Shown here: positions 3,445-35,034 of the stretch, one piece after another
How the letters are laid out: each line of letters opens with the position of its first letter
Numbering within the stretch: the stretch's first letter is position 1
Assembly (NCBI GenBank): GCA_903920975.1
Contig: CAIXNZ010000059.1
Coordinates: 1 to 36,648, forward strand
Reading direction: 5' to 3'
Length of the DNA stretch: 36,648 nt
DNA from: Candidatus Falkowbacteria bacterium
Lineage (GTDB): Bacteria > Patescibacteriota > Patescibacteriia > CAIXNZ01
Made by a program: the position numbers and the translations under genes
Notes under the pieces: model-generated
Databases searched by the model: none
What the model was told of the DNA's origin: nothing
Seen by the model: the letters and a program-made list of their open reading frames with translations, nothing else

Positions 3445-4065
3445 ATGAAAAAAATTATTTTCGTACTGTGTCTGGCTCTGCTTCTGACTGGCTGCGGAAG
3501 CAAAGGTGTCCAGCCCATTGCTCAAGGTGTGCCCGTGTCAGGCTCTATTGAGGACTTAATAAAATTGGGAAAAAATTACAGATGCGAGCTTCAGTTTAAA
3601 GATGGCGATCAGATTTCGTCCAGCACCACCTATTTATCAGGCAGTTCATTAAGATCTGATTATCAGATGAAATCTGGCGAACAGACCCTTAATGGCCATG
3701 CTATCATGACAGGCACAACCATGTACTCCTGGGTGGATGAAATGCCCAATCAGGCAATTAAGTTCAATCGGGCCGATTTAAAGCAGTTTCAGGGTCAGGC
3801 CGAAAAGACTTCGCCGAGTGCAAGCAGTTATGAGAATAAATATGATTACAAGTGTTATTCCTGGACCCCGGATCAGTCCAAGTTTACTGCGCCAGCTGGT
3901 ATAAATTTTACTGATTATTCAGACATGCTTAATCAGCTTCAGGGTCAGCTCAAAGGTCTGAATGTTAATGCGCCAACTGGTAATGCTAATATGTGCGCAA
4001 GTTGCGATTCAATTTCAAACGCCAGTAGCAAGGCAATGTGCAAGCAACAGCTGGGTTGTAAATAG
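3445..4065 (+). CDS. predicted lipoprotein, function unknown
   Basis: MKKIIFVLCLALLLTGCGS gives a signal peptide plus an L-T-G-C lipobox. Six further Cys follow, four clustered at the C-terminus (CASC..C..C). G+C is visibly above the neighbours. A terminator follows. Confidence 0.75.
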   Translation: MKKIIFVLCLALLLTGCGSKGVQPIAQGVPVSGSIEDLIKLGKNYRCELQFKDGDQISSSTTYLSGSSLRSDYQMKSGEQTLNGHAIMTGTTMYSWVDEMPNQAIKFNRADLKQFQGQAEKTSPSASSYENKYDYKCYSWTPDQSKFTAPAGINFTDYSDMLNQLQGQLKGLNVNAPTGNANMCASCDSISNASSKAMCKQQLGCK

Positions 4066-5854: not shown

Positions 5855-7033
5855 TTATTTGATGGTTATTCGCCCTCCGACAAAACTGGGTGCCATGTTT
5901 TCTGCCAAAGAAGCATGTAGCAGCTGCAGTGTCGTGTAGGTAAAAGCGATTTTCATGCTCATGTCATTTTTGATCTTTTTTGTATAATTCTCCATATGCA
6001 ACTTTTCGTAGTGTTTTTCCAGTTCGTGTATGACTTTGATTAGGCCAGCGAGCTTTCCGTGATCTCTGCAATAAATTTTAACCTTGTCCAAAAAGCTTTT
6101 GAGCTTATTCTTATAATCCATGGGTCCGTAAGTGTCTATGGACATCAAATCTTTCATTGTCTGCTGCAAGCCAGTAATGCCGATAAAATATCTATTTTTG
6201 GCCATGATGAGTTGTCCAGTTTCCGTGTCAATAGTCGGTTCTGACACTTCCAAGGGCTCTTCAATTAACTCGACCAAGTCAACAATCTCTTCTTCAACAG
6301 GCAAAAGCTCCGCGGCTTTTTCAACGAAGGGTTTTGGTATAATCAGGGAAAGACGTTCTTCGTATTGGTCAGCCAGTTTTAGAAGATAGGCGGGAAAGGT
6401 AGAAGGAAGAACTCTGGTAATCAACGCTTTAAGCTGATTAACATCAATCTTCAATTTCTCCTTTTCCAATTGTCCGATTACCATTATGAGCTCTTCATTG
6501 AATGGTTTGGCCAAACGGTCATCTTGGGCAGGTCTTTTGGACCGTTCAAAACAAGTGTTAAGAATTGAGCGGATTTTTTCTTGTATGATAATCTTGGCAC
6601 GCTGTTCTGCGCTGTCTGCCGTTTTATACCGTTTTTCCAGCTCGTCATTTATCCTCATTTTGTTGAATGTAGAAAAATCTTCATCTCCGATGACAAGTTT
6701 TTTCCAAACATAGCTATATGGAACATTTTTTTTGAAGAATTTTTCAACAGTTTCTTCATCAAGGTAAATTCGCCTTTTATAGCATTCCATTTTTAGTTCG
6801 CTCCAGGCAACCCAGAATATTGCTCGTGGTGCACCGTAGGGATCTGGTTGTTTCTTGTCATCAGGAATCGTGCCGTCAAGATTAAGCATGGAAATGTCAA
6901 CCTCAATTTCCGGCTGCTCTGCTTTTTTTTGATGATCTTCTAAACTCTTGCAAAGCTGAACATAGTCATCCATAAGTGAGCTAAAGATTTTGAAAAACAA
7001 AGATTCAAAAGTAAGATTTTCATTTTCAGTCAT
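5855..7033 (-). CDS. hypothetical protein, 392 aa, no family recognised
   Basis: Long ORF with SD GTAGGAGGTAAAA-ATG, its own consensus promoter and a terminator. It is predicted soluble, helical and acidic. Confidence 0.8.
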   Translation of the reverse strand: MTENENLTFESLFFKIFSSLMDDYVQLCKSLEDHQKKAEQPEIEVDISMLNLDGTIPDDKKQPDPYGAPRAIFWVAWSELKMECYKRRIYLDEETVEKFFKKNVPYSYVWKKLVIGDEDFSTFNKMRINDELEKRYKTADSAEQRAKIIIQEKIRSILNTCFERSKRPAQDDRLAKPFNEELIMVIGQLEKEKLKIDVNQLKALITRVLPSTFPAYLLKLADQYEERLSLIIPKPFVEKAAELLPVEEEIVDLVELIEEPLEVSEPTIDTETGQLIMAKNRYFIGITGLQQTMKDLMSIDTYGPMDYKNKLKSFLDKVKIYCRDHGKLAGLIKVIHELEKHYEKLHMENYTKKIKNDMSMKIAFTYTTLQLLHASLAENMAPSFVGGRITIK

Positions 7034-17758: not shown

Positions 17759-18688
17759 ATGTCTTTACAACACGAGCCAGTTTTATTAAATGAAGTGATT
17801 GAATATCTTAACCCGCGCTCGGGTGAAAATTTTATAGATTGTACTCTGGGGGGAGGGGGACATGCCAAAGCAATTTTAAAAAAAACCACGCCAGGCGGAA
17901 AATTAATCGCTATTGATCTGGACACCAAGGCCCTGGAAATTGCCAAAGCTAATTTAAAAGAATATAGCAATAGAATAATTTTTGTTAATGATAATTATAA
18001 ACACCTAGAAAATATAGTAGCCAGTTCAAAGATAAATATTTTTGCTGGAATTTTATTAGATCTAGGTTTTTCAAGTATGGAACTGGCAGATGAAAGTCGG
18101 GGATTTTCTTTTCAAAAAGATGCTTTTTTAGACATGCGTTTTGGCACCAGCGGTAAAACTGCGGCTGATATTTTAAATGGTTATAAAGAAGCTGATTTGA
18201 TTAGAATCTTTAAAGACTATGGCGAAGAAAGGCATAGCAGTCTGATTGCCAGAGCCATAGTTAATAACAGGGGGAAGGAGAAAATCACCACTACTAATCA
18301 GTTGGTTGCAATTATTGAAACGGTTTATAAAAATAGGCCCAAACCCAAAATTCATGTGGCCACCAAAGTTTTTCAAGCTCTAAGAATAGAAGTTAATGAA
18401 GAATTAAATAATTTACAACAAGTTTTGCCAGTTGCTTTAAAACTTTTAAACAGAGGGGGAAAAATTGCCGTAATTTCATTTCATTCTCTAGAAGACCGTA
18501 TTGTTAAGAATTTTTTTAAGCAAGAAGCTAGGGATTGCCTTTGCCCGCCAAAAGTTCCGCTGTGTAATTGTGGCCACAAAGCCAGTTTAAAAATTTTAAG
18601 CAAAAAAGTTATTATTGCCAGCGAGCAAGAAATTAAAAATAATCCCAGGAGCCGCAGCGCTAAATTGCGCGTGGCCGTCAAAATATAA
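17759..18688 (+). CDS. rsmH: 16S rRNA (cytosine1402-N4)-methyltransferase
   Basis: DCTLGGGGHA SAM motif, FHSLEDRIVK, and C-terminal NPRSRSAKLRV. Confidence 0.95.
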   Translation: MSLQHEPVLLNEVIEYLNPRSGENFIDCTLGGGGHAKAILKKTTPGGKLIAIDLDTKALEIAKANLKEYSNRIIFVNDNYKHLENIVASSKINIFAGILLDLGFSSMELADESRGFSFQKDAFLDMRFGTSGKTAADILNGYKEADLIRIFKDYGEERHSSLIARAIVNNRGKEKITTTNQLVAIIETVYKNRPKPKIHVATKVFQALRIEVNEELNNLQQVLPVALKLLNRGGKIAVISFHSLEDRIVKNFFKQEARDCLCPPKVPLCNCGHKASLKILSKKVIIASEQEIKNNPRSRSAKLRVAVKI

Positions 18689-18690
18689 AT

Positions 18691-19050
18691 ATGACTAAAT
18701 TCATGATTGGTGCCAAGTTTGAGCACCTCAAAGAAAAATTTTATAGAAAAGGCATATTAAACCAGCAGATTAACAGCAAGGGGATTTTTATATTATTATT
18801 TACTGTTACTGCCTTGTGTGGCTTGATTTACCTTTGGCAAATTAATGGCTTGGCCACCAAGGGTTATAAGATTAAAGATTTAGAAGAAAGAGTCTCTCAA
18901 ATAAAAAATCAGAATAAAAAATTAGAACTGGAAGTTACAGAGTTGCGATCCAGCGCCAGAATTGCAGAGAAATTAAAGGAATTAAATTTAGTAGAAGTAG
19001 CTAAAATAGAATATCTCACTGCCAATGGTTCAGTGGCTGTAAATAGATAA
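18691..19050 (+). CDS. ftsL: cell-division protein FtsL-like (bitopic, coiled coil)
   Basis: It sits directly after rsmH. It has one TM helix (IFILLFTVTALCGLIYLW) followed by a heptad-rich segment. Confidence 0.6.
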   Translation: MTKFMIGAKFEHLKEKFYRKGILNQQINSKGIFILLFTVTALCGLIYLWQINGLATKGYKIKDLEERVSQIKNQNKKLELEVTELRSSARIAEKLKELNLVEVAKIEYLTANGSVAVNR

Positions 19051-19061
19051 GATTTAAATAG

Positions 19062-19094
19062 AAAACCCCGCACCGGTTGATGCGAGGTTTTTTG
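19062..19094. terminator. bidirectional terminator ending the short dcw unit
   Basis: AAAACCCCGCA-loop-TGCGAGGTTTT (1 mismatch) followed by a T-run. The convergent gene's stop codon is at 19096. Confidence 0.7.
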
Positions 19095-19095
19095 T

Positions 19096-19797
19096 TCAAG
19101 GCAAAATTTTTATTGCCTGCAAATGGCCTTTGACGCTGAACAGGCCAAAAATTAAACAAGCGATAAGGAGAGGCAAAGAAAGATCAAGTAAGGTCAGGTG
19201 GCTTGGCAAATGAATGTATTTATCATGCAGATTGATAGAAGTGGCTGGATCAAAAAGCATAAGAAATGAAAGTACAATCACTTGCAAAACCATTTTGATC
19301 TTACCAAACTTATTGGCGCCACTGGTCAGAACTTCAAATTTGTGATGCAAGTATTTTAATTCGCTTGGCCAGCGCACCAGTACATACTTGAAGGTGGCAA
19401 TGAAAAAAAGCAGCAGATCAATACTGATAATAGGAATGACCAAATAAAGATAGTAGTCAGATCTGATGGTGTAAACAAATCCCAGAAAAGCGGCAAAATT
19501 CACTGCTTTATCAGCCGCTGGGTCCAAAAAGGCGCCGAATTTGGTGATCTGGTTACGAATTCTGGCCATAGAACCATCGAGTCCATCCAAGACAGCGGCA
19601 AAAAGAAAAAGACCGCCCGCAGTCTTGTTATAATGCTCCATAATGAGTAGAATAATTGGTATAGCCAGTAAAAAGCGAAAGCCAGATAAATGGTTAGGGG
19701 TTAGATTTTTTGGCAGAATTTTGATTAAATGTGTCCAGAAGTGATCATGACTTTTTATCTGCGCTCCTTTTTTCGCCACTCCGCTTTCTTCACTCAC
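19096..19797 (-). CDS. CDP-alcohol phosphatidyltransferase family protein
   Basis: Complete motif DGLDGSMARIRNQITKFGAFLDPAADK (Dx2DGx2ARx8Gx3Dx3D) and a multi-TM body. The start is set at GTG 19797, which is preceded by AAGGAGGG. The ORF-track TTG at 19815 lies inside that SD. Confidence 0.82.
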   Translation of the reverse strand: MSEESGVAKKGAQIKSHDHFWTHLIKILPKNLTPNHLSGFRFLLAIPIILLIMEHYNKTAGGLFLFAAVLDGLDGSMARIRNQITKFGAFLDPAADKAVNFAAFLGFVYTIRSDYYLYLVIPIISIDLLLFFIATFKYVLVRWPSELKYLHHKFEVLTSGANKFGKIKMVLQVIVLSFLMLFDPATSINLHDKYIHLPSHLTLLDLSLPLLIACLIFGLFSVKGHLQAIKILP

Positions 19798-19880
19798 TTG
19801 ACCCTCCTTATTCAATTTTTTTTATTTATTTAAGAACAGGATGATAATAGGATAGCAATTTTTAATAAAAATGTAAAGAT

Positions 19881-20993
19881 ATGGAAATTATAAAAAAATC
19901 AAAAAAATCTCAGGCCAGAATTGGCAAGTTAATAACTGGCCATGGTTTTATTAATACGCCATTTTTCATGCCGATTGCCACCAAAGCGGCTGTTAAAAAT
20001 ATTTCAGTTTGTGAATTGGATAAATTGGGAGCCGAAATAATACTGGCTAATACTTATCATTTATATTTGCAGCCAGGCGAGAAACTGATAAAAAAAGCTG
20101 GCGGTTTGCATAAGTTTATGAATTGGTCTGGCCCGATTTTGACTGATTCTGGCGGTTATCAGGTTTTTTCTTTGTCCAAAATAAATAAAATTAAAGCCGA
20201 TGGCGTGGAATTTCAATCCCATCTGGACGGATCCAGACATTTTTTAACGCCAGAAAAATCAATTCAGATTCAGCAAGATTTGGGTTCTGACATAATGATG
20301 GCGTTTGATGTGTGTCCAGCTGGTGATGCCAAGCAAAAAATAGTTGCAGAGGCCTGCGCGACAACCTTTGATTGGGCTAAGCGTTGTTATAAAACCTGGA
20401 AAAAGAGCAAAAAGAATCAGCAATTATTCGGAATAATTCAGGGCGGAATTTATAAAAAATTGCGCGATCAAAGTTTAAAGCAAATAACCAGTCTGGATTT
20501 TTCTGGTTTTGCTCTGGGTGGTTTGGCAGTTGGTGAGGATAGAAAAGATATGTATAAAATTTTGCAGTATATTGCGCCAAAACTCCTTGAAAATAAACCG
20601 CGTTATTTAATGGGCCTGGGCAGACCCGAAGAAATAGTTTTTGCCATAAAACAGGGGATTGATATGTTTGATTGCGTCATTCCCACGCGAGAAGCGCGCC
20701 ATGGCCGTTTGTACCAATTTTGTTCAACCAAGCAAAAAGGTGCGATTAAGTTATTTGGTAATTTAGCTTATAGAACTTCAATTATTAAAAATGAAAAAAA
20801 TAAGCTTGATTATTCTTCCATCAATAAAAATTCTGAAATAAAATTATTGCGCCAGTATTCTAAATCATATTTACACCATTTATTTAAAACCCAAGAGGGT
20901 TTGGGTTTAAGATTGGCAACATTAAATAACTTGGAATTTTATTTAACTTTAATGAAACAAATTCAAAAAGCTATTAAGAATGGCAGTCTATAG
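19881..20993 (+). CDS. tgt: queuine/preQ1 tRNA-ribosyltransferase
   Basis: Motifs LTDSGGYQVFSL, MAFDVC, GIIQGG, GFALGGLAVGE, PRYLMGLGRPEE and GIDMFDCVIPTR. The C-terminal zinc motif is absent (see findings). Confidence 0.9.
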   Translation: MEIIKKSKKSQARIGKLITGHGFINTPFFMPIATKAAVKNISVCELDKLGAEIILANTYHLYLQPGEKLIKKAGGLHKFMNWSGPILTDSGGYQVFSLSKINKIKADGVEFQSHLDGSRHFLTPEKSIQIQQDLGSDIMMAFDVCPAGDAKQKIVAEACATTFDWAKRCYKTWKKSKKNQQLFGIIQGGIYKKLRDQSLKQITSLDFSGFALGGLAVGEDRKDMYKILQYIAPKLLENKPRYLMGLGRPEEIVFAIKQGIDMFDCVIPTREARHGRLYQFCSTKQKGAIKLFGNLAYRTSIIKNEKNKLDYSSINKNSEIKLLRQYSKSYLHHLFKTQEGLGLRLATLNNLEFYLTLMKQIQKAIKNGSL

Positions 20994-20994
20994 T

Positions 20995-21023
20995 TTGACA
21001 GATTTTTAGTATAGTGATAACTT
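20995..21023 (+). promoter_or_regulatory. promoter driving the structured RNA at the island's left edge
   Basis: TTGACA (20995-21000), a 17-nt spacer, then an extended -10 TGATAACTT (21015-21023). It starts 2 nt after the tgt stop codon. Confidence 0.55.
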
Positions 21024-21029
21024 AATAAT

Positions 21030-21142
21030 TGCCCTAGATCGCCTAGCGGGTCTAGTAAGCAGAAAACAGCTAGGTCTCCAAGTAGACGATCCTCGGTCGC
21101 ATGGAGGAATAACAGGGGAAAGCCTCCCGGGGTATTTTTTTT
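21030..21142 (+). ncRNA. unclassified structured RNA, ~110 nt: either a riboswitch-like leader or a small RNA, with an intrinsic terminator
   Basis: This G+C-rich segment lies between a consensus promoter and a T8 run. Stems include CCUAGC (21042-47)/GCUAGG (21069-74). There are also mutually exclusive pairings: CCUC (21091-94) with GAGG (21104-07), versus GGAGG (21103-07) with CCUCC (21123-27) followed by U8. Confidence 0.4.
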
Positions 21143-21172
21143 ATCTGACGCAGCTTAAGCGAAAATGGATTA

Positions 21173-21201
21173 TTGACAAAAAATAGTTTTATTGTTAAGT
21201 T
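21173..21201 (+). promoter_or_regulatory. promoter of island ORF A
   Basis: TTGACA, a 17-nt spacer, then an extended -10 TGTTAAGTT. Confidence 0.6.
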
Positions 21202-21244
21202 GATTTAAAGTAAAAAACCCACAAAGTGGGAAAAGGAGGAAGGG

Positions 21245-21778
21245 ATGAATGGTAATGGTATAAACGCACCGCACATTTGGGAGGGTAAGACGCCTCTTGA
21301 TGAAACAGCATTTAAACGCATGAAGGAGGGGTTTGAAGCAACCCTCAAATCAAGCGGTGGTGAAACCATGGTACCGGAATATGCCATTGTTTTTCACCAC
21401 CAGACCGGTTTTTTCACTGTTTCTGAAGCCCATGTTTACCGCGACAAAAATGGCTTTGCCAAGAGTGACGGATTCGTGCAGAGAATGGTTCTTCATCCGA
21501 CCTGGCCCGTACAAATTGATCCGTCCAGACTGGGCGAGGCGCCAATGCCTCTTTGGGAGGGAAAAGATTTTCCTGACGCTCAGGCCTGGGATCTGATTCA
21601 CAAGACAGCGCAAATGCGCATACCCGAACCCAACGGTGGCGTCATTGAGGTGGAGGTCGCTCTAGTCTTTGACTCCAGAGCCAGACTCTATCGCGCTTTT
21701 TCCAAGGCCTATTATCGCAATGCCGACGGCAGGGCCCTGAGTGATGGTTTTGTGGCCACGGCAGGTTTTGACAATTAG
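21245..21778 (+). CDS. island ORF A: hypothetical protein, 177 aa, made of two tandem ~71-aa repeats
   Basis: SD AAAAGGAGGAAGGG-ATG. G+C is about 50 %. The internal duplication is AP..WEGK....D...A...GG..E.A.VF.....YR...G.A.SDGFV, present twice. Confidence 0.8.
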   Translation: MNGNGINAPHIWEGKTPLDETAFKRMKEGFEATLKSSGGETMVPEYAIVFHHQTGFFTVSEAHVYRDKNGFAKSDGFVQRMVLHPTWPVQIDPSRLGEAPMPLWEGKDFPDAQAWDLIHKTAQMRIPEPNGGVIEVEVALVFDSRARLYRAFSKAYYRNADGRALSDGFVATAGFDN

Positions 21779-21786
21779 AATTTATA

Positions 21787-21817
21787 AAGGCGGAGCAGAA
21801 ATGCTTCGCCTTTTTTC
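21787..21817 (+). terminator. terminator of ORF A
   Basis: AAGGCGGAGC-6 nt-GCTTCGCCTT followed by TTTT. Confidence 0.85.
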
Positions 21818-21835
21818 TATTTATGTCAGCGGGTA

Positions 21836-21864
21836 TTGACAAAATTTGACTAAAGCGCGATTAT
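21836..21864 (+). promoter_or_regulatory. promoter of island ORFs B-C
   Basis: TTGACA, a 17-nt spacer, then GATTAT. The -10 box is the weaker element. Confidence 0.5.
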
Positions 21865-21920
21865 TTAAGTAGAAGTACTTTTTATTAATATTGGGCCAAA
21901 AACACATAAGGAGGTGTACC

Positions 21921-22310
21921 ATGCTAGAATTATTAGTATTGCTTCTAGGCGGTGGTGTGCTGGCCGAAGGTTTGAGCCAAAAGAGCGAGCTTAGTACTGC
22001 GAGAAGCATGATAAAGAGAGAACTCGAAGCCGGAGCAGCCGAACACGCATTTGGCCTTTCCTCGGTCAGATGGCGTCTGGGGTCAGAATTTGATGTAAAT
22101 GGACATATTAATTTAGATAATGTTCTGCCCAGGCCAACAATTGCAGATGGAATGAGCCAAGCCAGCAAATATCGTTTTAAGCTGGAATTGGCAGAATCTA
22201 CCCTGGCTGTGATGGATAGATTCAATATTAGTGAGTTGGGAGGAATGACACGGCATGAAATAAGAGTTGAAACAGCCTTATTGGCAAAACGAGTCAAAAA
22301 CAGACAATAA
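21921..22310 (+). CDS. island ORF B: hypothetical protein, 129 aa, hydrophobic N-terminus
   Basis: AAGGAGGTGTACC-ATG. N-terminal MLELLVLLLGGGVLAEG. The ORF-track start at 21891 (TTG) lacks an SD. Confidence 0.7.
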   Translation: MLELLVLLLGGGVLAEGLSQKSELSTARSMIKRELEAGAAEHAFGLSSVRWRLGSEFDVNGHINLDNVLPRPTIADGMSQASKYRFKLELAESTLAVMDRFNISELGGMTRHEIRVETALLAKRVKNRQ

Positions 22311-22329
22311 AACCTGAAGGAGGTGTACC

Positions 22330-22695
22330 TTGAACAGAAGAACGGCCCTTTCGCTCCTGGGGGGATACACTCCACCGTATTATGGAGATGAGTATCCATT
22401 GTTATTTCCACAGTCACAACCCTTGGTACCTAGCGATCCAAGCGAAAATAGCTTGCGAGCGCTACGTATTTTGAAGGGCATCCAGCTCAAGTCCGCAGCT
22501 ATTGAACAGCTCGGCGGCGTAGCGTTTGAACAAGCGCGCGGCATGAGCGCTGCCATAGTTTCTACTGTGCAAGCTGAAGGTTTGCCAGTAGGTCAGGAAG
22601 TCTGCGGCGACTTCAAAGTAAATTATGATTTTGGCGGCTGCGGCTCCAGAATTTCAATCAGTGGCCACATGTCCGTACGAAGGCGCAGATTTTAG
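22330..22695 (+). CDS. island ORF C: hypothetical protein, 121 aa
   Basis: A TTG start is preceded by the same 13-nt AAGGAGGTGTACC seen before ORF B, 19 nt after the ORF B stop. It begins MNRRTALSLLGG and ends RRRRF. Confidence 0.65.
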   Translation: MNRRTALSLLGGYTPPYYGDEYPLLFPQSQPLVPSDPSENSLRALRILKGIQLKSAAIEQLGGVAFEQARGMSAAIVSTVQAEGLPVGQEVCGDFKVNYDFGGCGSRISISGHMSVRRRRF

Positions 22696-22700
22696 ACCCT

Positions 22701-22731
22701 AAGCCTCTTGGTAATACCAGGAGGCTTTTTA
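22701..22731 (+). terminator. terminator of the B-C unit
   Basis: AAGCCTCTTGGT-AAT-ACCAGGAGGCTT (12 bp, one G-U pair) followed by TTT. Confidence 0.85.
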
Positions 22732-22733
22732 TA

Positions 22734-22762
22734 TTGACAAATTCCTAGATTTTTTATATGTT
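22734..22762 (+). promoter_or_regulatory. promoter of island ORF D
   Basis: TTGACA, a 17-nt spacer, then TATGTT. The 5' UTR carries GACCCGC-GAA-GCGGGTC (22794-22810), which abuts the SD. Confidence 0.55.
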
Positions 22763-22827
22763 ATTATATTAGGATAGGACTTTAAAAAAAATAGACCCGC
22801 GAAGCGGGTCAAGGAGGTGAAAATAAA

Positions 22828-23286
22828 TTGGTTGCTACTGACAAGGAAAAATTGAGAACTCAGGCAATGTTTCTGGTAGGCAACACCTATGTGGGTGAAA
22901 TCAAAAGGCATGTATTTAATCACATTAAAACTGCCCTTGATCAAGGTTTGATTCATTTTGAAGAGCTTGGAATTACCAGAGAACAATGGGTGGTGCTGGA
23001 AAAGGAATTCATAGAAGTTGAAGAAGATTTGCCAATAGAAAAAATGACAGCTGCTGAGGCAAAAGATTTGGCCAAGAGTTTTGGTGCTTTATGGCTAAAA
23101 ATTCAAACGGTTACGGATGAAGAACATAAAAAAGAATTAATTGATTTGTTGAAAAATTTATGGCCGCGCATTAATCATGCCATCAGCACCCGTTTAATCA
23201 CCAATTTAGACATGGGATTAACTAGAACGACTGAGTATTTTGAAATCCAGGCTTTAGTTCACGAAGATGATAAGGCAAAAAAATAA
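22828..23286 (+). CDS. island ORF D: hypothetical protein, 152 aa, acidic and helical
   Basis: A TTG start lies 10 nt after AAGGAGG. The first in-frame ATG (codon 14) has no SD. Confidence 0.65.
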   Translation: MVATDKEKLRTQAMFLVGNTYVGEIKRHVFNHIKTALDQGLIHFEELGITREQWVVLEKEFIEVEEDLPIEKMTAAEAKDLAKSFGALWLKIQTVTDEEHKKELIDLLKNLWPRINHAISTRLITNLDMGLTRTTEYFEIQALVHEDDKAKK

Positions 23287-23318
23287 AGTCCATTCAATAT
23301 TTTGAGTGGACTTTTTAT
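23286..23318 (+). terminator. terminator of ORF D
   Basis: AAGTCCATTCAA-TATT-TTGAGTGGACTT followed by TTTAT. Confidence 0.85.
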
Positions 23319-23320
23319 TA

Positions 23321-23349
23321 TTGACATTTTTTTACATTTTTGCTATATT
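23321..23349 (+). promoter_or_regulatory. promoter of island ORF E
   Basis: TTGACA, a 17-nt spacer, then an extended -10 TGCTATATT. Confidence 0.65.
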
Positions 23350-23379
23350 ATAATATCAGGTTTAAAAAGGAGGCAAAAA

Positions 23380-23595
23380 ATGACTCAAATGACGCAAATT
23401 TCTGCCAAACAGGTCTATGATTTTCTCCGGGATTCTGATGAAGATCCTAAAAAGCTCAAAGTATTAATGACTCGCTTGGCCGGCATAACCAGTTCCGAAA
23501 AAGAGCTTTTAACAGCTCAGCAAGTAAGCCATATCTTTGAAGGATCGCCAAGCCTGAGATCTGCCTTTGAAGCGCGACAAAAGACTAACTCCTAA
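23380..23595 (+). CDS. island ORF E: hypothetical protein, 71 aa
   Basis: AAGGAGG, 6 nt, then ATG. The ORF-track start at 23302 would lie upstream of this unit's own promoter. Confidence 0.65.
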   Translation: MTQMTQISAKQVYDFLRDSDEDPKKLKVLMTRLAGITSSEKELLTAQQVSHIFEGSPSLRSAFEARQKTNS

Positions 23596-23618
23596 TCACT
23601 TTGGTTAGGAGTTTTTTT
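23587..23618 (+). terminator. terminator of ORF E (the stem includes the stop codon)
   Basis: AACTCCTAA-9 nt-TTAGGAGTT followed by T-rich sequence. Confidence 0.85.
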
Positions 23619-23646: not shown

Positions 23647-24009
23647 ATGAAAAGGGACTCAACATTACGCCTGATAATTTTGCTTTTAATCGATGAATTA
23701 AAGGCAATTTTGTATTTTCCGCTCTGGTGGTACTCGGCGGGTTTAATTAATGTAGTTAAGGGCTGCGGAAAATTCATTAATGATTTTCAGCAAACCTTGG
23801 GTTTTATGATCTGGGTGAAAAATCTTTTTGTGCCCATGTTTGGCCAGCGCGATATTGCCGGCAGAATTATCAGCTTTTTCTTGCGCTTAGTGCAAATAAT
23901 TTTTAGAGGGATTATTGTTTTAATCTTTTGCGTTTTGAATTTAATTTTTATAATCATTTGGATTTTATTGCCGATTTTTGTGCTTTATCAAATTCTTATC
24001 CAGCTTTAA
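23647..24009 (+). CDS. small polytopic membrane protein, 120 aa
   Basis: Low G+C, with several hydrophobic helices (..LWWYSAGL.., ..IIVLIFCVLNLIFIIIWILLPIFVLY..). The stop lies 1 nt before the Clp-like gene. An extended -10 TGGTAAAAT ends 6 nt before the ATG, and there is no SD. Confidence 0.72.
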   Translation: MKRDSTLRLIILLLIDELKAILYFPLWWYSAGLINVVKGCGKFINDFQQTLGFMIWVKNLFVPMFGQRDIAGRIISFFLRLVQIIFRGIIVLIFCVLNLIFIIIWILLPIFVLYQILIQL

Positions 24010-24010
24010 T

Positions 24011-26749
24011 ATGGAAAATAATTCTGAAAATTTGCAATTTTTAATCTGCAGCCAATGCGCTGGCAGTGGTTTAGTTAATAGAAAAAAATGCAAAACCTGC
24101 CAGGCCAGGGGAGTGATTGCATATTTAGAAGGGCATATTTTATATTGGGGAGAAAAAATAAATTCCCGCTTTTTAACTTTGTATAAAATTGAACGGTTTA
24201 TTACCAATGGCGTTTTTATCATATTATTTACCATTGGATTTTTGGGAATTTTAAGCCTTGGCTATGCGGTTTATCTGGATAATTTCATAAATATAATAAA
24301 ACTAGAATTTTGGACGCAGAAAAATCCCTTGTTATTATATTTTTGGCTGACGATTTTAACTGATTTATATTTAATTTATTATTTTTCATTAGCCAAAGCA
24401 GCAAAAGAAAAAGTGATTGCTAAGCAGTATAGATCAGCAGAAGATAAAAATATTATTGCGCCTCCGGAAATGGATTGGCTGTCAATTAGGAAAATTGGTA
24501 AGAAAATAGATATTGCCAAAGCTTTCAATGAGGAAGCCCTGTTATTAGTAGAACAGGCTTTTAATATTGCCAAAAAATATAAAGCTTCCGAAGTAGGCCC
24601 AGTCCACTTTTTAATTGCCGCCCTAGCTTCTTCAAAAAATATACAGAATATGTTTGTACGATTGGGTGTTGATTTTGAAGATTTTGCGCCAAAAATCGGC
24701 CGTGTCGCAGCGCGTTATCCGCAAAGTGATAGCGAGCCGATATTTAACCAAAATTCCGTGCAAATACTTTTAAAAGCTTATAGAAACTCTTACAATAATC
24801 GAGCAGAACAAGTCACAACCAGCGACATAGTTGTTGAGTCAGTAAAAAGCGATAAATTAATTCAGGAAGTCTTGACTGACATTAATATCACGCCGGAAAA
24901 AGTTGAAAATGTTGTTTTGTGGTATCGTATTCGTGATATATTACACAAACAGTGGTTGCTTTATCGTGCATCAGCCAGATTAAAATCCAAAACAGGCATT
25001 GACCGGGCCATGACAGCATTGCAAACCTCATTTTTAAATCAATTTTCAGAAGACCTGACTCTGCTTGCCAAAACCGGCTATTTATCTTTATGCATTGATA
25101 GAGAAAAAGAATTTACTGAGATTTTTCGAGTTTTAGAGGGCAGTTCTGCGAAGAGCGTGATTTTGGTGGGCGATGTGGGCGTTGGTAAAACCGCCATTGT
25201 TGAGGGCTTGGCTCAAAAAATGATTGCTGATGATGTGCCAGAACTTTTAAAAGATAAAAGATTGGTTAGTTTGAGCACTTCTCAATTACTTGCTGGCGCC
25301 TCAATTAGCATGGCGCAAGAACGTTTTTATCGCTCTTTAAATGAAATTATCAGGGCAGGCAATGTTATTTTATTTATTGATAATATTCATGATTTAATCC
25401 CGGAATTAATTGAAATTTTAACTGAGGCTTTGTCAAAAAATGCTTTTATTTTTGTCAGTAGCACGAATTTGGCTGGCTATAAGAATGTAATAGAGCGCTC
25501 AAGTTTGAGTAGTCTTTTGAAAAAAATACAAGTTAATGAGCCAGATATTAATGGTGCCATTCAAATATTGGAAGGCCGGGCTGGTTTTATTGAAGCCAAA
25601 AATAATATTTTCTTTTCTTATGATGCTTTGGAACAAGCCGTAAAATTAACAGACAGATATGTTCATGATCAAAATTTACCGCTCAAGGCCTTGAATCTGC
25701 TTGAAGAAGTAGGCAACTGGGCCAAGTCAAATCTGGGCGCCAAGGCCATGGTCATGGGTAATGATGTAGCAACTTTGATCTCAGATAAATTAGGAGTAAA
25801 AGCCGCTGATGTGACCAAAAGCGAAGGTGAAAAATTATTAAATCTAGAACAAATAATTCACGAAAGAATAGTTGATCAAGAAGAGGCAGTTAATGCCGTG
25901 GCAAATAGTTTGAGAAGGGCCAGAGCCGAGTTAAGGGAAAACAAGCGTCCAATTGCCAATTTGTTATTTTTGGGGCCAACTGGCGTAGGTAAAACCGAAT
26001 TAGCCAAGGTTATTGCAGAGGTTTATTTTGGCAGTGAAGAAAATATGATACGCTTAGACATGTCAGAATATCAGGAAAAAAACAGTATCAACCGCTTGAT
26101 TGGCGCACCCCCAGGCTATGAAGGCTCAGAAGGCGGAGGGCAATTGACTGAAGCAGTGCGTTTAAAGCCTTTTTCCATTGTTTTGCTTGATGAATTAGAA
26201 AAGGCGCATCCAGATATTTTAAATATATTTTTGCAGGTTATGGAAGATGGCCGCTTGACTGATTCGACGGGCAGGACCATTGATTTTACTAATGTTATTT
26301 TAATTGCCACTTCCAATGCCCAGACTGCCTTTATTTCTGAAAAGGTTAAAGCTGGAATGTCCTTAGAAGAAATAAAAAAGCAACTGCTGGAAACCGAATT
26401 AAAGCAAAATTTTAAACCAGAATTTATTAATCGTTTTGATAATATAATAATTTTCAAACCCCTGGGCTTTGAAGAAGTTTTAAAAATTGCAGGTTTGCTT
26501 TTGCAGCAAGTTGCCAAAAATTTAGAAGCCAAAGGAATCAATTTTCAAGCCAATCAAGACGCAGTTATGGAATTAGCCAAAGAGGGTTTTGATCCGCAAT
26601 TTGGGGCCAGGCCACTTCGCCGCGTCATTCAAGATAGAGTTGATAATGCCTTGGCTCAGTATTTAATCACTGGCAAAATTGGTAAGCGCGATTTAGTCAT
26701 TTTAGATAAAGGGGGAGTAATAAGAGTGGAAAAAGCCAAAGAGCTTTAA
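24011..26749 (+). CDS. Clp/Hsp100-family AAA+ ATPase with an N-terminal DnaJ-type zinc finger and two TM helices, no M-domain, and a degenerate D1
   Basis: CSQCAGSG plus CKTCQARG, two hydrophobic helices, and a Clp_N-like repeat. D1 has Walker A GDVGVGKT, but its Walker B reads ILFIDNIH (Glu to Asn). D2 is canonical: GPTGVGKTELAK, VLLDELEKAHPD, GRLTD and ATSN. Confidence 0.88.
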   Translation: MENNSENLQFLICSQCAGSGLVNRKKCKTCQARGVIAYLEGHILYWGEKINSRFLTLYKIERFITNGVFIILFTIGFLGILSLGYAVYLDNFINIIKLEFWTQKNPLLLYFWLTILTDLYLIYYFSLAKAAKEKVIAKQYRSAEDKNIIAPPEMDWLSIRKIGKKIDIAKAFNEEALLLVEQAFNIAKKYKASEVGPVHFLIAALASSKNIQNMFVRLGVDFEDFAPKIGRVAARYPQSDSEPIFNQNSVQILLKAYRNSYNNRAEQVTTSDIVVESVKSDKLIQEVLTDINITPEKVENVVLWYRIRDILHKQWLLYRASARLKSKTGIDRAMTALQTSFLNQFSEDLTLLAKTGYLSLCIDREKEFTEIFRVLEGSSAKSVILVGDVGVGKTAIVEGLAQKMIADDVPELLKDKRLVSLSTSQLLAGASISMAQERFYRSLNEIIRAGNVILFIDNIHDLIPELIEILTEALSKNAFIFVSSTNLAGYKNVIERSSLSSLLKKIQVNEPDINGAIQILEGRAGFIEAKNNIFFSYDALEQAVKLTDRYVHDQNLPLKALNLLEEVGNWAKSNLGAKAMVMGNDVATLISDKLGVKAADVTKSEGEKLLNLEQIIHERIVDQEEAVNAVANSLRRARAELRENKRPIANLLFLGPTGVGKTELAKVIAEVYFGSEENMIRLDMSEYQEKNSINRLIGAPPGYEGSEGGGQLTEAVRLKPFSIVLLDELEKAHPDILNIFLQVMEDGRLTDSTGRTIDFTNVILIATSNAQTAFISEKVKAGMSLEEIKKQLLETELKQNFKPEFINRFDNIIIFKPLGFEEVLKIAGLLLQQVAKNLEAKGINFQANQDAVMELAKEGFDPQFGARPLRRVIQDRVDNALAQYLITGKIGKRDLVILDKGGVIRVEKAKEL

Positions 26750-31177: not shown

Positions 31178-32653
31178 ATGATTAGGAGGTATTCTGACAA
31201 GAAAGTCGATGGGAATTGGGCGCTTAAGCACAAATATTTGCTTTGGCAGGAAATTGAACTTGCTGTTATCAAGGTGCGTTGTGAGAGGAGCACATTTCCG
31301 GCTGATGTCTGGAGCAAAATTTCGTTGATTCTGAAGAACTGCGAAATTGATGTTGAAGAAATCAAGCGCATTGAAGAAATAACCAAGCATGACCTAAACG
31401 CCTTCATTGAGGAGCGTAAGTCACATCTGCCAGAGGAACTGCGTAAATATGTGCATTTTATGATGACTTCGTATGATACGGAAGAGGCGCCATTTTCTCT
31501 GATGCTTCTTGATTCAGTCAAGGATGCAGTAACTGCCTGCGATGATTTAATTTTATTATTGTGGGAAATGGCGTTTAAGTTCCGTTATACGCCCATGTTG
31601 GGGCGTACTCACGGCCAGGAAGCCAAGCTGCAATCATTTGGCTTGCGCATTTTGCACTGGTGCCGTTCATTGGATTATGCCCGTTATCAATTGCAAAGCG
31701 CGACCACAGGCATCCGCTTCTCAAAATTAAGCGGTGCCATTGGCAATTATCAGGGCGTCACGCCAGAAGAGGAAAAAGAAGTTCTCAAGTCAATCGGCCT
31801 TGAACCATTTGTTGGCGCTTCGCAGATTATTCCCAGGATTGTGCATCAGCCATTGGCTAATGCATTAGTTATGATCGTAGGCGCTTTGACGCAGATTGCC
31901 GAGGATGTGCGCATTGCAGCACGCAGCGGCATGCCCATTATGCAGGAATTTTTTGACAAGGGTCAGATGGGGTCATCGGCCATGCCCCACAAAAAAAACA
32001 CCATCACCTGTGAAAATCAAATCGGCATGTGGCGCATGGCCAAAGGCTTTGCTGATATGTTGCGTGACTGCATATTAACATGGGAAGAGCGTGCTATCGA
32101 ACAATCCAGTGTTGAGCGCGTGGCTTGGCCGGATTTATTCCATGTGGTTATGCAGTCTTTCAAAAACATGACCAGAATTTTGGAAAAGCTCCAGGTTTTC
32201 CCCGATAACATGATGCTGGAAATTTATTATTCGCATGGCTGCTATGCCTCTGAAGATGCCAAGGAACTTCTTAAGGAATTCGGCCTGATTGACGACGCCT
32301 ACAAGATTGTTCAGCTGGCTGCAGCAATTGTTCACGAACCCTGTAAAGTACTCAAAGATTATCGTCTGGCGAAAAAAGACGGAGAAGAAGAGCATAAATA
32401 TCCAATGATCGAAGAAGCAAATATGCTTGGTCGCTGTCATAAAGATCTTTGCCAGACCATCTGCGAAGTCATTTACACTGGTGCACTTTATCCCATTGAA
32501 GCTCTCGGCCACAGCCAAGAGACAGTGGATGAGTGGAACCGTAAGCTGCAAAATATCTTTGCAGATCCAGAAAAGCTGGAGCGATGGCATAATATTTTTT
32601 CCATCGCATACCAGCTGAGAAATGAAGATTTCATTTTTAACACGTACAAGTAA
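31178..32653 (+). CDS. purB: adenylosuccinate lyase (divergent, 491 aa)
   Basis: Fumarate-lyase superfamily signature GSSAMPHKKN, GRTHGQEA, TSYD, and the PurB-type N-terminus RRYS...W..E.A.....T.HD.NAF. SD AAAAGGAGGG. G+C is elevated. Confidence 0.82.
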   Translation: MIRRYSDKKVDGNWALKHKYLLWQEIELAVIKVRCERSTFPADVWSKISLILKNCEIDVEEIKRIEEITKHDLNAFIEERKSHLPEELRKYVHFMMTSYDTEEAPFSLMLLDSVKDAVTACDDLILLLWEMAFKFRYTPMLGRTHGQEAKLQSFGLRILHWCRSLDYARYQLQSATTGIRFSKLSGAIGNYQGVTPEEEKEVLKSIGLEPFVGASQIIPRIVHQPLANALVMIVGALTQIAEDVRIAARSGMPIMQEFFDKGQMGSSAMPHKKNTITCENQIGMWRMAKGFADMLRDCILTWEERAIEQSSVERVAWPDLFHVVMQSFKNMTRILEKLQVFPDNMMLEIYYSHGCYASEDAKELLKEFGLIDDAYKIVQLAAAIVHEPCKVLKDYRLAKKDGEEEHKYPMIEEANMLGRCHKDLCQTICEVIYTGALYPIEALGHSQETVDEWNRKLQNIFADPEKLERWHNIFSIAYQLRNEDFIFNTYK

Positions 32654-32692
32654 AAAAAATAAAGCCCCATACCAACTGGTACGGGGCTTTTT
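32654..32692. terminator. bidirectional terminator shared by convergent purB and purH
   Basis: AAAGCCCCATACC-AACT-GGTACGGGGCTTT (1 mismatch), with an A-run to the left and a T-run to the right. Confidence 0.8.
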
Positions 32693-32701
32693 CTTTTGGA
32701 A

Positions 32702-34516
32702 TTAGTGTTTGGCAAAGCCGCGATATTCGGGCTCAAGGAAAAAAACACGCAGGCCTGCTTCCTTGAAAAGATCCCAGACCTCGGTAAGATTTTTCCCGTC
32801 AGCCGGCACAATGCCGCCTTTGCAGCCGGCATCAATGAGCATTTCCGCTCCTTCGCGATTGTCTTGCTTGTTAATGGCAGCTGCCGCTTGGACAAGAATG
32901 CGCAAGGCTTTTTTGGAATCTGGCGAAGAAGGTTTTAAGCAGGCAAAGGCCTCGTCCGCGCTCTTGACCAGTTGTTTGGTCAGGTTGTAAAGCACATTGT
33001 CATCCGGAGCGATGCTGGTCGCATAGGGGAAAAAGCCGTCTGAAGCAAAAAACGCTTCTTTGACATCATGTCCTGCATGAAGGGCGCGGTCCAGACAGAG
33101 GCGCACACAAGCGATTCTGTCTTGCTGGCCGCAGCCGACTGAAAGTAGCATGTTGTTTTTGGCCAGGGCAACTGTGTTGCTGGAAGAAAACCAGCAAACA
33201 CACAAAGCAAGGAGTGTTGTTTCTAGGTCATAGGGGCCCATATCTTTTGTCCAGTTATTTTTCATCTTATTCAGATCAATGCTGGGATATGGCTTTTGGC
33301 GGAGAAATCCGCCGAGCACAGGGCTCCAGACCCAATCAATAACTGGCAACGAAGCCGCATCAATTCGTTTAAGGGCTGGATTAACCAAGAGTCGTCTTTT
33401 TTCCTTTTTGCCCAGAAGCTGTACGGTATTTTCAGAAATTTCCGGAGCTAGGATAAGGTCTAAGCCCCAGTTCTGACGGCCGATGGGTTTGTTTGGGTCA
33501 GGCGCATAAAGTATCTGGCCTCGAAGGTCATCAATTGGGAAATTGGTGACCACCTCGCCACCCATGATCGCGGTTGTATCGCCGTAAATGGCTCCCTTTA
33601 AAGCGTCTTCTGGCGAACGCCAATCAAAAGCCGCGCCGCATGGATTGCCATGCTTGCCGGCAATTGCTATAAAAGGCACATTGCCGCGGTTGATGCGGAA
33701 GGCATCAGCCAGATAGCGCATGATTCTGATTATGCCACTGGCATCAGCCGAAGCAATATAGCTCGGATTGCCAGCCAGAACTTGAAAGTTGGGCAGGCTG
33801 AGCGGGTCAGTATCACCGACCAGCTTGAAAAGGTCGGCTGGGTTTTGACACTTGTTTTCAGCATAGGCCAGTTCTTTGACATGTTCAAGGAAAATTGTCT
33901 CCACTTTTTTGCCGCACATTTCAGCCAAGTACTGGCTGATCGCAGTGTCATATTTGGCCATCAGATCAAAGACCTTAAAGGCCAGTTCACGCCGCAGTTC
34001 CCAACTGACTTGTCCGTTTTTGCTTTTTTCCAGAGCTTTAAGTACGCGATCACGATCGGCCGGGTCGCAGATGACGATGGTGCCGTTGTTATGGTTTTTG
34101 GCTGCGCCGCGCAACATGGTTGGTCCGCCGATGTCAGTGAGTTCCATTACCGCGTCCAGGTCGCCTCTGTTTTTTCTGATGGCATCCCTGACCGGATAAA
34201 TGTCCACGCAGACAATGTCAAAGCGCGGGATGCCGTATTTTTCTCTCTCGGCGTCGTGTTCTGGCGATCTTTTGGCCAATATCCCGCCGTGGATTTTGGG
34301 ATGGAGAGTGACCACTCTGTGGTCCAGGATTGCCGGCATGCCAGTGATCTTGGCCACGTCAGTAACCGGAACGTGGTAATCTCTGAGGCATTTGGCTGTC
34401 CCTCCAGAAGATACAATTTTGTAACCCAGCTTTAGGAGCGCATGTGCAAAATCGACAATGCCATCTTTGTGATAGACACTAAGTAGTGCCAACCGTTGTC
34501 CTTTTTTGAATTTCAT
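32702..34516 (-). CDS. purH: bifunctional AICAR transformylase / IMP cyclohydrolase (long form, 604 aa)
   Basis: MGS-like N-terminal domain (ALLSVYHKDGIV..SSGGTAK..RVVTLHPKIHGGIL..DIVCVDIYP). AICARFT domain (AGKHGNPCGAA, ASDGFFPY). SD AAAAAGGAGGAGGAGGA. G+C is about 50 %. Confidence 0.9.
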   Translation of the reverse strand: MKFKKGQRLALLSVYHKDGIVDFAHALLKLGYKIVSSGGTAKCLRDYHVPVTDVAKITGMPAILDHRVVTLHPKIHGGILAKRSPEHDAEREKYGIPRFDIVCVDIYPVRDAIRKNRGDLDAVMELTDIGGPTMLRGAAKNHNNGTIVICDPADRDRVLKALEKSKNGQVSWELRRELAFKVFDLMAKYDTAISQYLAEMCGKKVETIFLEHVKELAYAENKCQNPADLFKLVGDTDPLSLPNFQVLAGNPSYIASADASGIIRIMRYLADAFRINRGNVPFIAIAGKHGNPCGAAFDWRSPEDALKGAIYGDTTAIMGGEVVTNFPIDDLRGQILYAPDPNKPIGRQNWGLDLILAPEISENTVQLLGKKEKRRLLVNPALKRIDAASLPVIDWVWSPVLGGFLRQKPYPSIDLNKMKNNWTKDMGPYDLETTLLALCVCWFSSSNTVALAKNNMLLSVGCGQQDRIACVRLCLDRALHAGHDVKEAFFASDGFFPYATSIAPDDNVLYNLTKQLVKSADEAFACLKPSSPDSKKALRILVQAAAAINKQDNREGAEMLIDAGCKGGIVPADGKNLTEVWDLFKEAGLRVFFLEPEYRGFAKH

Positions 34517-34674: not shown

Positions 34675-34725
34675 TTTTTTAGCTCATTAAAAAGGTCTAT
34701 TTGAGAAAGAAGGAGGGGATTGAAA

Positions 34726-35034
34726 ATGAAAGTAACTAAAAAGTGCAAGGAGCCTGGTAATGTCAAAAAGCTTTACAAAGCAATCAATGAATTATTGCGA
34801 AAAATTTTGTTGATTTTTACTTCGCGCGGGTATCCTGAAGGCCAGGTAATGGATTTCATCTTTATCCTTTACTTAATGGTTATCGACGGAACTGATATCG
34901 AACAAATTGCCGATTCTTTGGCAATAGTCAAAACAAAATTAAGCGCAAAGGATATCAAAGACCTCATTGATTATTTGAATCAGGCAAAAAGCCTGTACGA
35001 TAAGGCAAAAAAAACAAAAAGATCTTTTCGCTAG
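34726..35034 (+). CDS. hypothetical protein, 102 aa
   Basis: The ATG lies 9 nt after GAAGGAGGGG. The ORF-track TTG at 34720 is too close to the SD. A terminator follows. Confidence 0.6.
   Translation: MKVTKKCKEPGNVKKLYKAINELLRKILLIFTSRGYPEGQVMDFIFILYLMVIDGTDIEQIADSLAIVKTKLSAKDIKDLIDYLNQAKSLYDKAKKTKRSFR

Follow-up and report, generated by a model that had tools for sequence, protein, structure and literature searches.

Do the five small genes that lie between tgt and a membrane protein–ClpB-like ATPase operon on contig CAIXNZ010000059.1 of a Candidatus Falkowbacteria bacterium constitute one horizontally acquired system? The window, as we call the whole 36.6-kb stretch of host genome that was analysed, is a chromosome fragment of 37% G+C (guanine plus cytosine), and a first-pass annotation of its sequence had singled out genes A, B, C, D and E as a single acquired accessory module. 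All five open reading frames (ORFs) were recovered at the sizes first given, with products of 177, 129, 121, 152 and 71 aa, respectively, in four promoter-to-terminator units. A to E are not one coherent system, because D and E are native, A belongs to a native family of the clade, and only B-C has the appearance of a recent gain. We lean towards the view that the interval, hereafter the slot, is a long-lived variable small-gene slot of one Patescibacteria clade, in which autonomous modules are swapped one module at a time. The features of the slot are as follows.

20995–21142, + strand: candidate small RNA unit, bounded by a promoter and a terminator, non-coding, directly after the tgt stop codon
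21173–21230, + strand: promoter and 5' untranslated region (UTR) of A; TTGACA at 21173–21178, 17-nt spacer, TGtTAAGTT at 21193–21201
21245–21778, + strand: gene A, 177 aa, tandem duplication of an ~80-aa domain, no signal peptide
21786–21817, + strand: terminator of A, AAAGGCGGAGC-AGAAAT-GCTTCGCCTTT followed by a T-run
21816–22731, + strand: B-C cassette, an insertion/deletion unit with a promoter (21836–21864), B, C and a terminator
21921–22310, + strand: gene B, 129 aa, hydrophobic N-terminus MLELLVLLLGGGVLA, isoelectric point (pI) 8.1
22330–22695, + strand: gene C, 121 aa, TTG start, pI 9.1, C-terminus RRRRF
22701–22731, + strand: terminator of the B-C unit, stem of 12 pairs (6 G-C), then a T-run
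22734–22762, + strand: promoter of D, TTGACA-17-TATGTT
22794–22810, + strand: stem-loop in the 5' UTR of D, GACCCGC-GAA-GCGGGTC, abutting the Shine-Dalgarno sequence (SD)
22828–23286, + strand: gene D, 152 aa, TTG start, acidic, all-helical
23285–23349, + strand: terminator of D (23285–23318, 13 pairs) and promoter of E (23321–23349)
23380–23595, + strand: gene E, 71 aa, conserved beside D
23587–23618, + strand: terminator of E, abutting the promoter of the membrane-protein/Clp operon

Slot content differs between relatives with conserved flanks

To the comparison we brought related loci, each designated by L and a number; these contigs are mostly 1–2 kb long, and gene presence elsewhere in those genomes lies outside them. 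The 22-kb locus L091 preserves the entire backbone order of the window, from the L10 gene to the Clp gene. By blastn, its similarity to the window covers 18001–21118 (backbone, tgt and the 5' domain of the candidate small RNA) at 87% identity, continues as separate blocks at 21170–21203 (A promoter) and 21746–21815 (3' end of A and its terminator), and resumes at 22732, from the D promoter onward, at 89% identity. In the same map, the 916 bp at 21816–22731 replace 33 bp of L091. The A position of L091 is occupied by an 83-aa one-domain gene, with a product that shares just 28% identity with each half of A and is nearer to other one-domain members.

The remaining loci hold other combinations. 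In L087, a partial A precedes B-C, after which comes a D-like start that has diverged. In L088, B-C is preceded, where A would lie, by no more than the remains of the A promoter, an SD, an ORF of 10 codons and the terminator of A, and the B position of L006 holds a different gene, with a product starting MEKGLHLECG. L092 and L093 carry D, and L093 also E and the Clp operon; upstream of D, both contain other genes, each closed by an A-type terminator. A 74-aa ORF also lies upstream of D within positions 1–600 of L092. The consistent co-occurrence expected of one module was thus not observed: A was found without B-C (L091, L006), B-C without A (L088), and D-E without A-C (L093). The window, L087 and L088 contain B-C, and L091, L092 and L093 lack it upstream of D. 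No relative showed the empty tgt–clp junction for which the first reading had proposed to look, D-E being present wherever the region was covered (L091, L093).

The nearest genome in the species-level collection is the Patescibacteria metagenome-assembled genome L007, with a Tgt 59% identical to that of the window, and the host is accordingly placed among the uncultured bacteria of the candidate phyla radiation (CPR). L007, a distant relative, keeps the frame from tgt to the membrane protein–Clp operon, with two unrelated small genes in its slot, for a Cys-rich lipoprotein and a 107-aa protein, and a non-coding element of ~300 nt bounded by a promoter and a terminator. Like chromosomal integration hot spots and flexible islets, the slot has fixed flanks across relatives, down to the Tgt identity of L007, and variable content. 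Unlike them, it measures 1.4–2.7 kb, is devoid of integrase, tRNA gene and mobility genes, and seems to vary module by module at terminator/promoter junctions. No tRNA or transfer-messenger RNA (tmRNA) gene was detected in the window, no integrase or transposase was found among its ORFs, and no attachment site was seen; the only repeat detected at the B-C borders is the 10-bp promoter motif TATTGACAAA (21833–21842 and 22731–22740).

The membrane protein/ClpB-like pair that closes the slot is kept in the window, L091, L093 and L007. In the window (23647–26749) and L007 (12551–15701), the 120-aa membrane protein overlaps the start of the 923-aa ClpB-like ATPase, a protein with hydrophobic segments and, at its N-terminus, a CxxC...CxxC motif.

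Atypical composition is confined to the core of the locus

The first-pass annotation had reported elevated G+C over ~2.6 kb, from hand counts of four 60-nt lines (29, 34, 12 and 27 of 60) that proved exact. The elevation holds for 20995–22730 but not for the D-E part, 22731–23618. With the compositional statistics of the host drawn from the 36.6-kb window, 20995–22730 has a G+C of 46.3% versus 35.6 ± 1.9% in the backbone (z = 5.7) and a tetranucleotide distance of 0.038 versus 0.019 ± 0.003 (backbone maximum 0.028); D-E has a G+C of 35.8% and a tetranucleotide distance within the backbone range. This high-G+C core contains the candidate small RNA, A, B and C, and part of its G+C comes from the candidate small RNA. 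What survives of the accessory-module proposal is the atypical composition of the core and an accessory B-C cassette, whereas A, D and E are native.

The core is not the sole anomaly, as a second block at 31178–34516, with 45–50% G+C, contains the genes of a purB-like lyase and of PurH, each led by a strong SD. The final ~3 kb of the 21-kb L007 locus (18001–21000) is also G+C-rich (45–56%). These G+C-rich purine genes (purB-like and purH, and the end of L007) may have been imported.

D and E are retained as core genes

We read D and E as conserved native core genes of the clade, because they occupy the same place in syntenic relatives. D homologues are 79%, 72% and 65% identical, lie at the same position in L091 and L093, and show ratios of non-synonymous to synonymous substitution (dN/dS) of 0.14–0.24; the G+C of the gene is 37%, as in the backbone. 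Orthologues of E at the same position are 62% (L091) and 46% (L093) identical, with dN/dS of 0.32–0.38. The signals around both genes are also retained: the D promoter and stem-loop in L091 and L093, and the D terminator/E promoter junction in L091, L092 and L093. The E promoter, TTGACA-17-TATATT with a TG, has 11 of 12 promoter matches, and the promoter regions of D and E are 75% identical over 48 nt. An extra nested hairpin of ~40 nt (GCCCCGCACC...GGTGCGGGGC), which the window lacks, lies right before the SD of D in L091 (9985–10028), L092 (~705–750) and L093 (~250–292).

The AlphaFold2 (AF2) model of D is all-helical, with a predicted local distance difference test score (pLDDT) of 77; this model and that of A were built on alignments of 3–4 sequences. 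Foldseek comparisons of the D model with PDB and BFVD returned nothing below E = 0.1, a PDB sequence/profile search with D yielded nothing meaningful, and E had no match in PDB.

A belongs to a small, clade-restricted domain family

The tandem repeat of A is evident in alignment, and its domain is marked by the motifs WEGK (end of strand 1), EVAIxF (an E-x-A-I/L strand), YR and (S/N)DGFV, in this order. Near and distant homologues give dN/dS of 0.09–0.20, and those at 48% identity retain length and reading frame. When 1.84 billion representative proteins were searched exhaustively with an HMMER profile, only five matches were credible, two with two domains and three with one (80–82 aa), and a sixth was a spurious repeat protein; A of the window and the L091 gene bring the known membership of the family to seven. 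A degenerate DNA pattern, WEGK..YR..DGF, hit 13 loci, all of them chance matches once translated.

Each half of A is modelled by AF2 as beta-alpha-beta-beta (pLDDT 62.6; predicted template modelling score 0.63). A Foldseek search of this model against PDB found nothing below E = 0.1 (TM-scores of ~0.15–0.4 for the A and D models), and sequence/profile searches of PDB with A and its domain gave nothing meaningful. A dodecin-like beta-alpha-beta-beta fold, considered for the A domain, was dropped because Foldseek lent it no support.

The window, L091, L107 and L108 carry their A-family gene directly downstream of tgt, and those of L109–L111 (between a TsaB-like gene and mraZ) and L004 lie in other contexts. 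In every lineage, the G+C of these genes is 41–51%, versus 33–41% for the rest of the contig, and each has a strong SD. High G+C is a lasting property of the family, and not in itself a mark of recent import, because it is kept across lineages despite saturated synonymous divergence between them. A bias of such persistence is more readily explained by selection, which could target codon choice, the amino-acid composition or the structure of the mRNA, than by recent import.

The flanks of A are also conserved. The stem-loop CCCAC-AAA-GTGGG (21218–21230) abuts the SD of A, and the promoter and 5' hairpin are kept in L006, L004 and L091, with covariation in L004 (CCGC-TTG-GCGG). The extended -10 element TGtTAAGTT is conserved in four relatives, and blastn identifies the A promoters of L091 and the window as homologous. 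Downstream, the 22-mer of the A terminator follows different genes in L006, L087, L091 and L093, with a one-base variant in L088 and more divergent variants in L092 and L004. A is thus best described as a native, clade-restricted family whose members appear to be exchanged inside conserved promoter and terminator flanks.

In L108 (458–951) and L109 (1357–1901), and also in L110 and L111, one-domain A genes are paired, in either order, with members of a small orphan family, X (75 and 94 aa; BLASTP E = 5e-12), which is absent from the window. B was rejected as a relative of family X (BLASTP E = 0.68), as was a D-like identity for the gene following the A homologue of L107 (hhalign probability 2%).

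B-C is a presence/absence cassette

B-C is the sole true presence/absence cassette of the slot, and the only candidate for recent acquisition. It is, as first annotated, a tight bicistron, with 19 nt between its genes, which share an identical AAGGAGGTGTACC initiation region. B has dN/dS of 0.05 versus L087 and L088, and its 90% cluster has 3 members only; C has dN/dS of 0.11–0.22 and is a singleton cluster, and a metagenome scan revealed no relative of C. Neither protein matched PDB sequences.

The hydrophobic N-terminus noted earlier for B was borne out, with a Kyte-Doolittle 19-residue score of 1.74 at residue 1. From the SD-supported ATG, B starts with a 14-residue hydrophobic run and no positive n-region; an in-frame upstream TTG (21891), without SD, would add KHIRR. 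B is possibly membrane-anchored or secreted. For C, the doubt already expressed about the h-region of a twin-arginine translocation (Tat) signal was justified: there is none, the RR being followed by TALSLLGG and then YTPPYYGDEY, and the Kyte-Doolittle 19-residue maximum is 0.79, at residue 74.

A candidate small RNA follows tgt

The four units first described do stand as self-contained, but a fifth had been missed, the non-coding element at 20995–21142, which we consider a candidate new small RNA (sRNA). Its promoter comprises TTGACA (20995–21000), a 17-nt spacer and the extended -10 element TGaTAACTT (21015–21023), and the predicted transcript, of ~113 nt from ~21030 and with 52% G+C, ends in a hairpin and a T8 run (21135–21142). 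A homologous element, about twice as long, lies directly after tgt in L091 (9263–9512); its promoter is the same, and the homology extends over the 5' domain. Between the window and L091, one helix shows a compensatory change from CTAGA/TCTAG to GTAAC/GTTAC, and a second changes from UCUCC/GGAGG to UCUUC/GAAGG. The folding z-score is -3.2 for the longer L091 element and -1.4 for the window element alone.

Rfam gave no match for the window sRNA at E ≤ 10, and its L091 homologue matched via the terminator only, far below thresholds. The candidates signal recognition particle RNA, 6S RNA, tmRNA and RNase P were rejected, with no Rfam or ARAGORN match. Pairing with neighbouring translation-initiation regions was not in excess, duplex energies having z ~0 versus shuffles, and no homology was found with the non-coding element of L007. 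The latter (L007 12203–12515) is a G+C-rich stretch of ~300 nt in the slot, with a TTGACA/TATAAG promoter and a terminator, and has no Rfam or ARAGORN match.

The element resembles small trans-acting or housekeeping bacterial RNAs in having its own promoter and Rho-independent terminator, in being G+C-rich in an AT-rich genome, and in the conservation of its helices with compensatory changes. It differs from them in that it belongs to no Rfam family, is known from two distinct copies, shows no detected target pairing with neighbouring genes, and lacks the 3' half found in L091.

Strong expression signals contrast with an SD-less backbone

Promoters and terminators were called by consensus scans and by reading the sequence, and are conserved in relatives. 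The TTGACA promoters with 17-nt spacing described previously were confirmed for B (21836), D (22734) and E (23321) by consensus scan, and that of A was read from the sequence. An SD of the AAGGAGG/GGAGG type precedes each of the five ORFs. The four hairpin and T-run terminators lie where they had been placed (hairpins at 21786–21813, 22701–22727, 23285–23314 and 23587–23613), with stems of 12–13 bp instead of the 9–12 bp first reported; a scan of 9 kb found 18 terminator-like sites versus 8.5 ± 3.2 in shuffles, the four of the locus being the longest. The description of the backbone as SD-less also held, as 27 of 32 ORFs outside the locus have no SD and 5 have one. All five products are under purifying selection (dN/dS 0.05–0.38).

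These signals, including the 5' stem-loops abutting the SD of A and D, among which covariation is seen in L004 and a G-U change in L091, suggest stable and well-translated mRNAs. The proteins of the locus are most likely abundant, non-enzymatic and small, a prediction made from sequence, and A, D and E look cytoplasmic.

The SD-less ORFs of the backbone frequently begin after ...ATTT (for example at 967, 4171, 23647 and 26755). The presence of leaderless mRNAs in the backbone is suggested by the gene at 23647, because an extended -10 element, TGgTAAAAT, ends 6 nt upstream of its ATG. The SD-bearing genes are those at 5855–7033 (-), 10289, 31178, 32702 (-) and 34720, together with A to E, and their G+C at third codon positions (GC3) is mostly higher. 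Elsewhere in the window, the ORFs at 5855–7033 (-), 34720–35034 (+) and 3445–4065 (+) belong to no family; two of them have a strong SD, and the last has a lipoprotein-like N-terminus and 44% G+C. These three ORFs may be modules like those of the slot.

Proposed module exchange

In the model we propose, a module would begin with a sigma-70-type consensus promoter and a short leader, the leaders of A and D adding a stem-loop that abuts a strong SD, and would end, after one or two small ORFs, in a strong intrinsic terminator. What would vary between relatives is the length of the structured small RNA (long or short); the occupant of the A position, which may be a paralogue with one or two domains or only a deleted remnant; and the presence of B-C; D and E would be conserved. 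A T-run followed by ATTGACAAA is present at the junctions of all units, and these repeated junctions are a plausible substrate for module-wise recombination. Near-identical terminator/promoter junctions of this kind, together with the conserved flanks, would act as homology arms, at which recombination would swap, insert or delete whole modules. The elevated G+C of the core would in turn reflect RNA structure and an amino-acid and codon bias maintained in strongly expressed genes.

Several observations weigh against this interpretation. The TATTGACAAA repeat at the borders of the cassette may simply reflect two promoters. The gene for ribosomal protein L10, also in the window, has no SD and a low GC3; therefore, an SD and high G+C are no general mark of high expression here, and expression strength is itself inferred from consensus signals alone. 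Finally, purB-like, purH and PhoH/PIN, which bear an SD and are richer in G+C, could be imports, and would keep a foreign origin of the core possible.

Alternative explanations

The best of the alternatives, although an unlikely one, is that the units are phage morons or a degraded prophage remnant, with CPR phages repeatedly targeting the slot. Morons are reportedly autonomous promoter-gene-terminator units placed between the genes of lambdoid prophages, and the architecture of the locus fits: a single gene or gene pair is enclosed by its own sigma-70-type promoter and factor-independent terminator, as consensus signals kept in relatives, the core has an atypical composition, and B-C is present or absent between otherwise collinear relatives. 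In addition, a phage cement/head-decoration gene (L092 1–600; PF09956, E = 3.9e-7; phrog_122, E = 1.4e-7) lies directly upstream of D in L092, closed by the same type of terminator. However, the viral searches were all negative: PHROG returned no match for A to E below E = 0.06; IMG/VR contained no relative of A, B, C, D, the A-domain alignment, the A terminator or the sRNA; and blastn against INPHARED phages and against plasmids gave no match. The locus has neither integrase nor attachment site, and lies between housekeeping genes, its neighbours being tgt, a CDP-alcohol phosphatidyltransferase gene and the membrane protein–ClpB-like ATPase operon. The A family, D and E are vertically conserved.

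That B-C is an independently mobile toxin/immunity, toxin-antitoxin or bacteriocin-like pair, as had been tentatively put forward, is less likely still. Like type II toxin-antitoxin and bacteriocin/immunity bicistrons, B and C are small, adjacent, tightly spaced, preceded by duplicated initiation regions, and gained or lost together at strain level; the hydrophobic N-terminus of B and the basic, poly-Arg-tailed C would also suit such a pair. Unlike them, B-C has its own strong, constitutive-looking promoter and matched no toxin-antitoxin, defence or bacteriocin profile, with no toxin or antitoxin superfamily at E ≤ 1 in Pfam, NCBIfam and PADLOC and no PDB sequence match. Selection is strongly purifying, but without recognisable DNA-binding or nuclease features, and the homologues come from three near-identical strains only, in which linkage is uninformative.

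The proposal with which we started now appears very improbable: it takes the entire 2.6 kb for a single module gained by horizontal transfer, with five jointly acting products that might, for instance, be secreted or serve in host interaction. In its favour are the atypical G+C and tetranucleotides of the core, the SD-led genes in a mostly SD-less genome, and the gene order of L087, A-B-C followed by a divergent D-like start. The absence of recognisable families also stands, as none of the five products matched Pfam, PHROG, NCBIfam or PADLOC, and family, viral, phage and plasmid searches of the locus found no phage, plasmid, defence or toxin-antitoxin signatures. Nevertheless, D and E have backbone composition and are kept without A-C, A and B-C are each found in the absence of the other, four lineages have a tgt-linked A-family gene of high G+C, mobility genes are missing, and signal peptides are lacking in A, C, D and E.

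A last idea, that the high-G+C core encodes no proteins and is either non-coding RNA or an artefact of annotation, has next to no probability. AT-rich genomes do have structured RNA genes of high G+C, and the first 150 nt appear to be an RNA gene, but for A-C the idea is refuted by the excess of synonymous over non-synonymous changes (dN/dS 0.05–0.22), by A homologues that keep length and frame at 48% identity, and by strong, correctly spaced SDs.

Genomic setting and implications

Besides Tgt and the ClpB-like ATPase, the window encodes phosphoglycerate mutase, YceG, PhoH/PIN, L10, MraZ, MraW, a DivIC-like protein, a CDP-alcohol phosphatidyltransferase, a family-4 glycosyltransferase, RecR and DnaB.

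One further idea, which we regard as a long shot, is that the WEGK...DGFV domain is an undescribed, clade-restricted fold that, next to tgt and under a strong promoter, would form with the structured sRNA a lineage-specific, highly expressed RNA and protein set, possibly tied to the handling of tRNA or queuosine precursors or to episymbiosis. If this is true, an SD-less and largely leaderless CPR genome would run a separate, SD-dependent regime for a few modular genes.

The locus does not point to a new multi-gene system. In the small genomes of Patescibacteria, with their many unannotated small genes, it is useful to separate the stable from the swapped, and this slot is a clean, small example of promoter-to-terminator module exchange between conserved flanks, to the extent that our preferred interpretation holds. 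It also brings a tiny new tgt-linked domain family, a candidate new sRNA, and SD-led genes amid an SD-less backbone. Provided that they prove abundant, A, D, E and the sRNA would merit structural or functional study, in a phylum with few characterised proteins.

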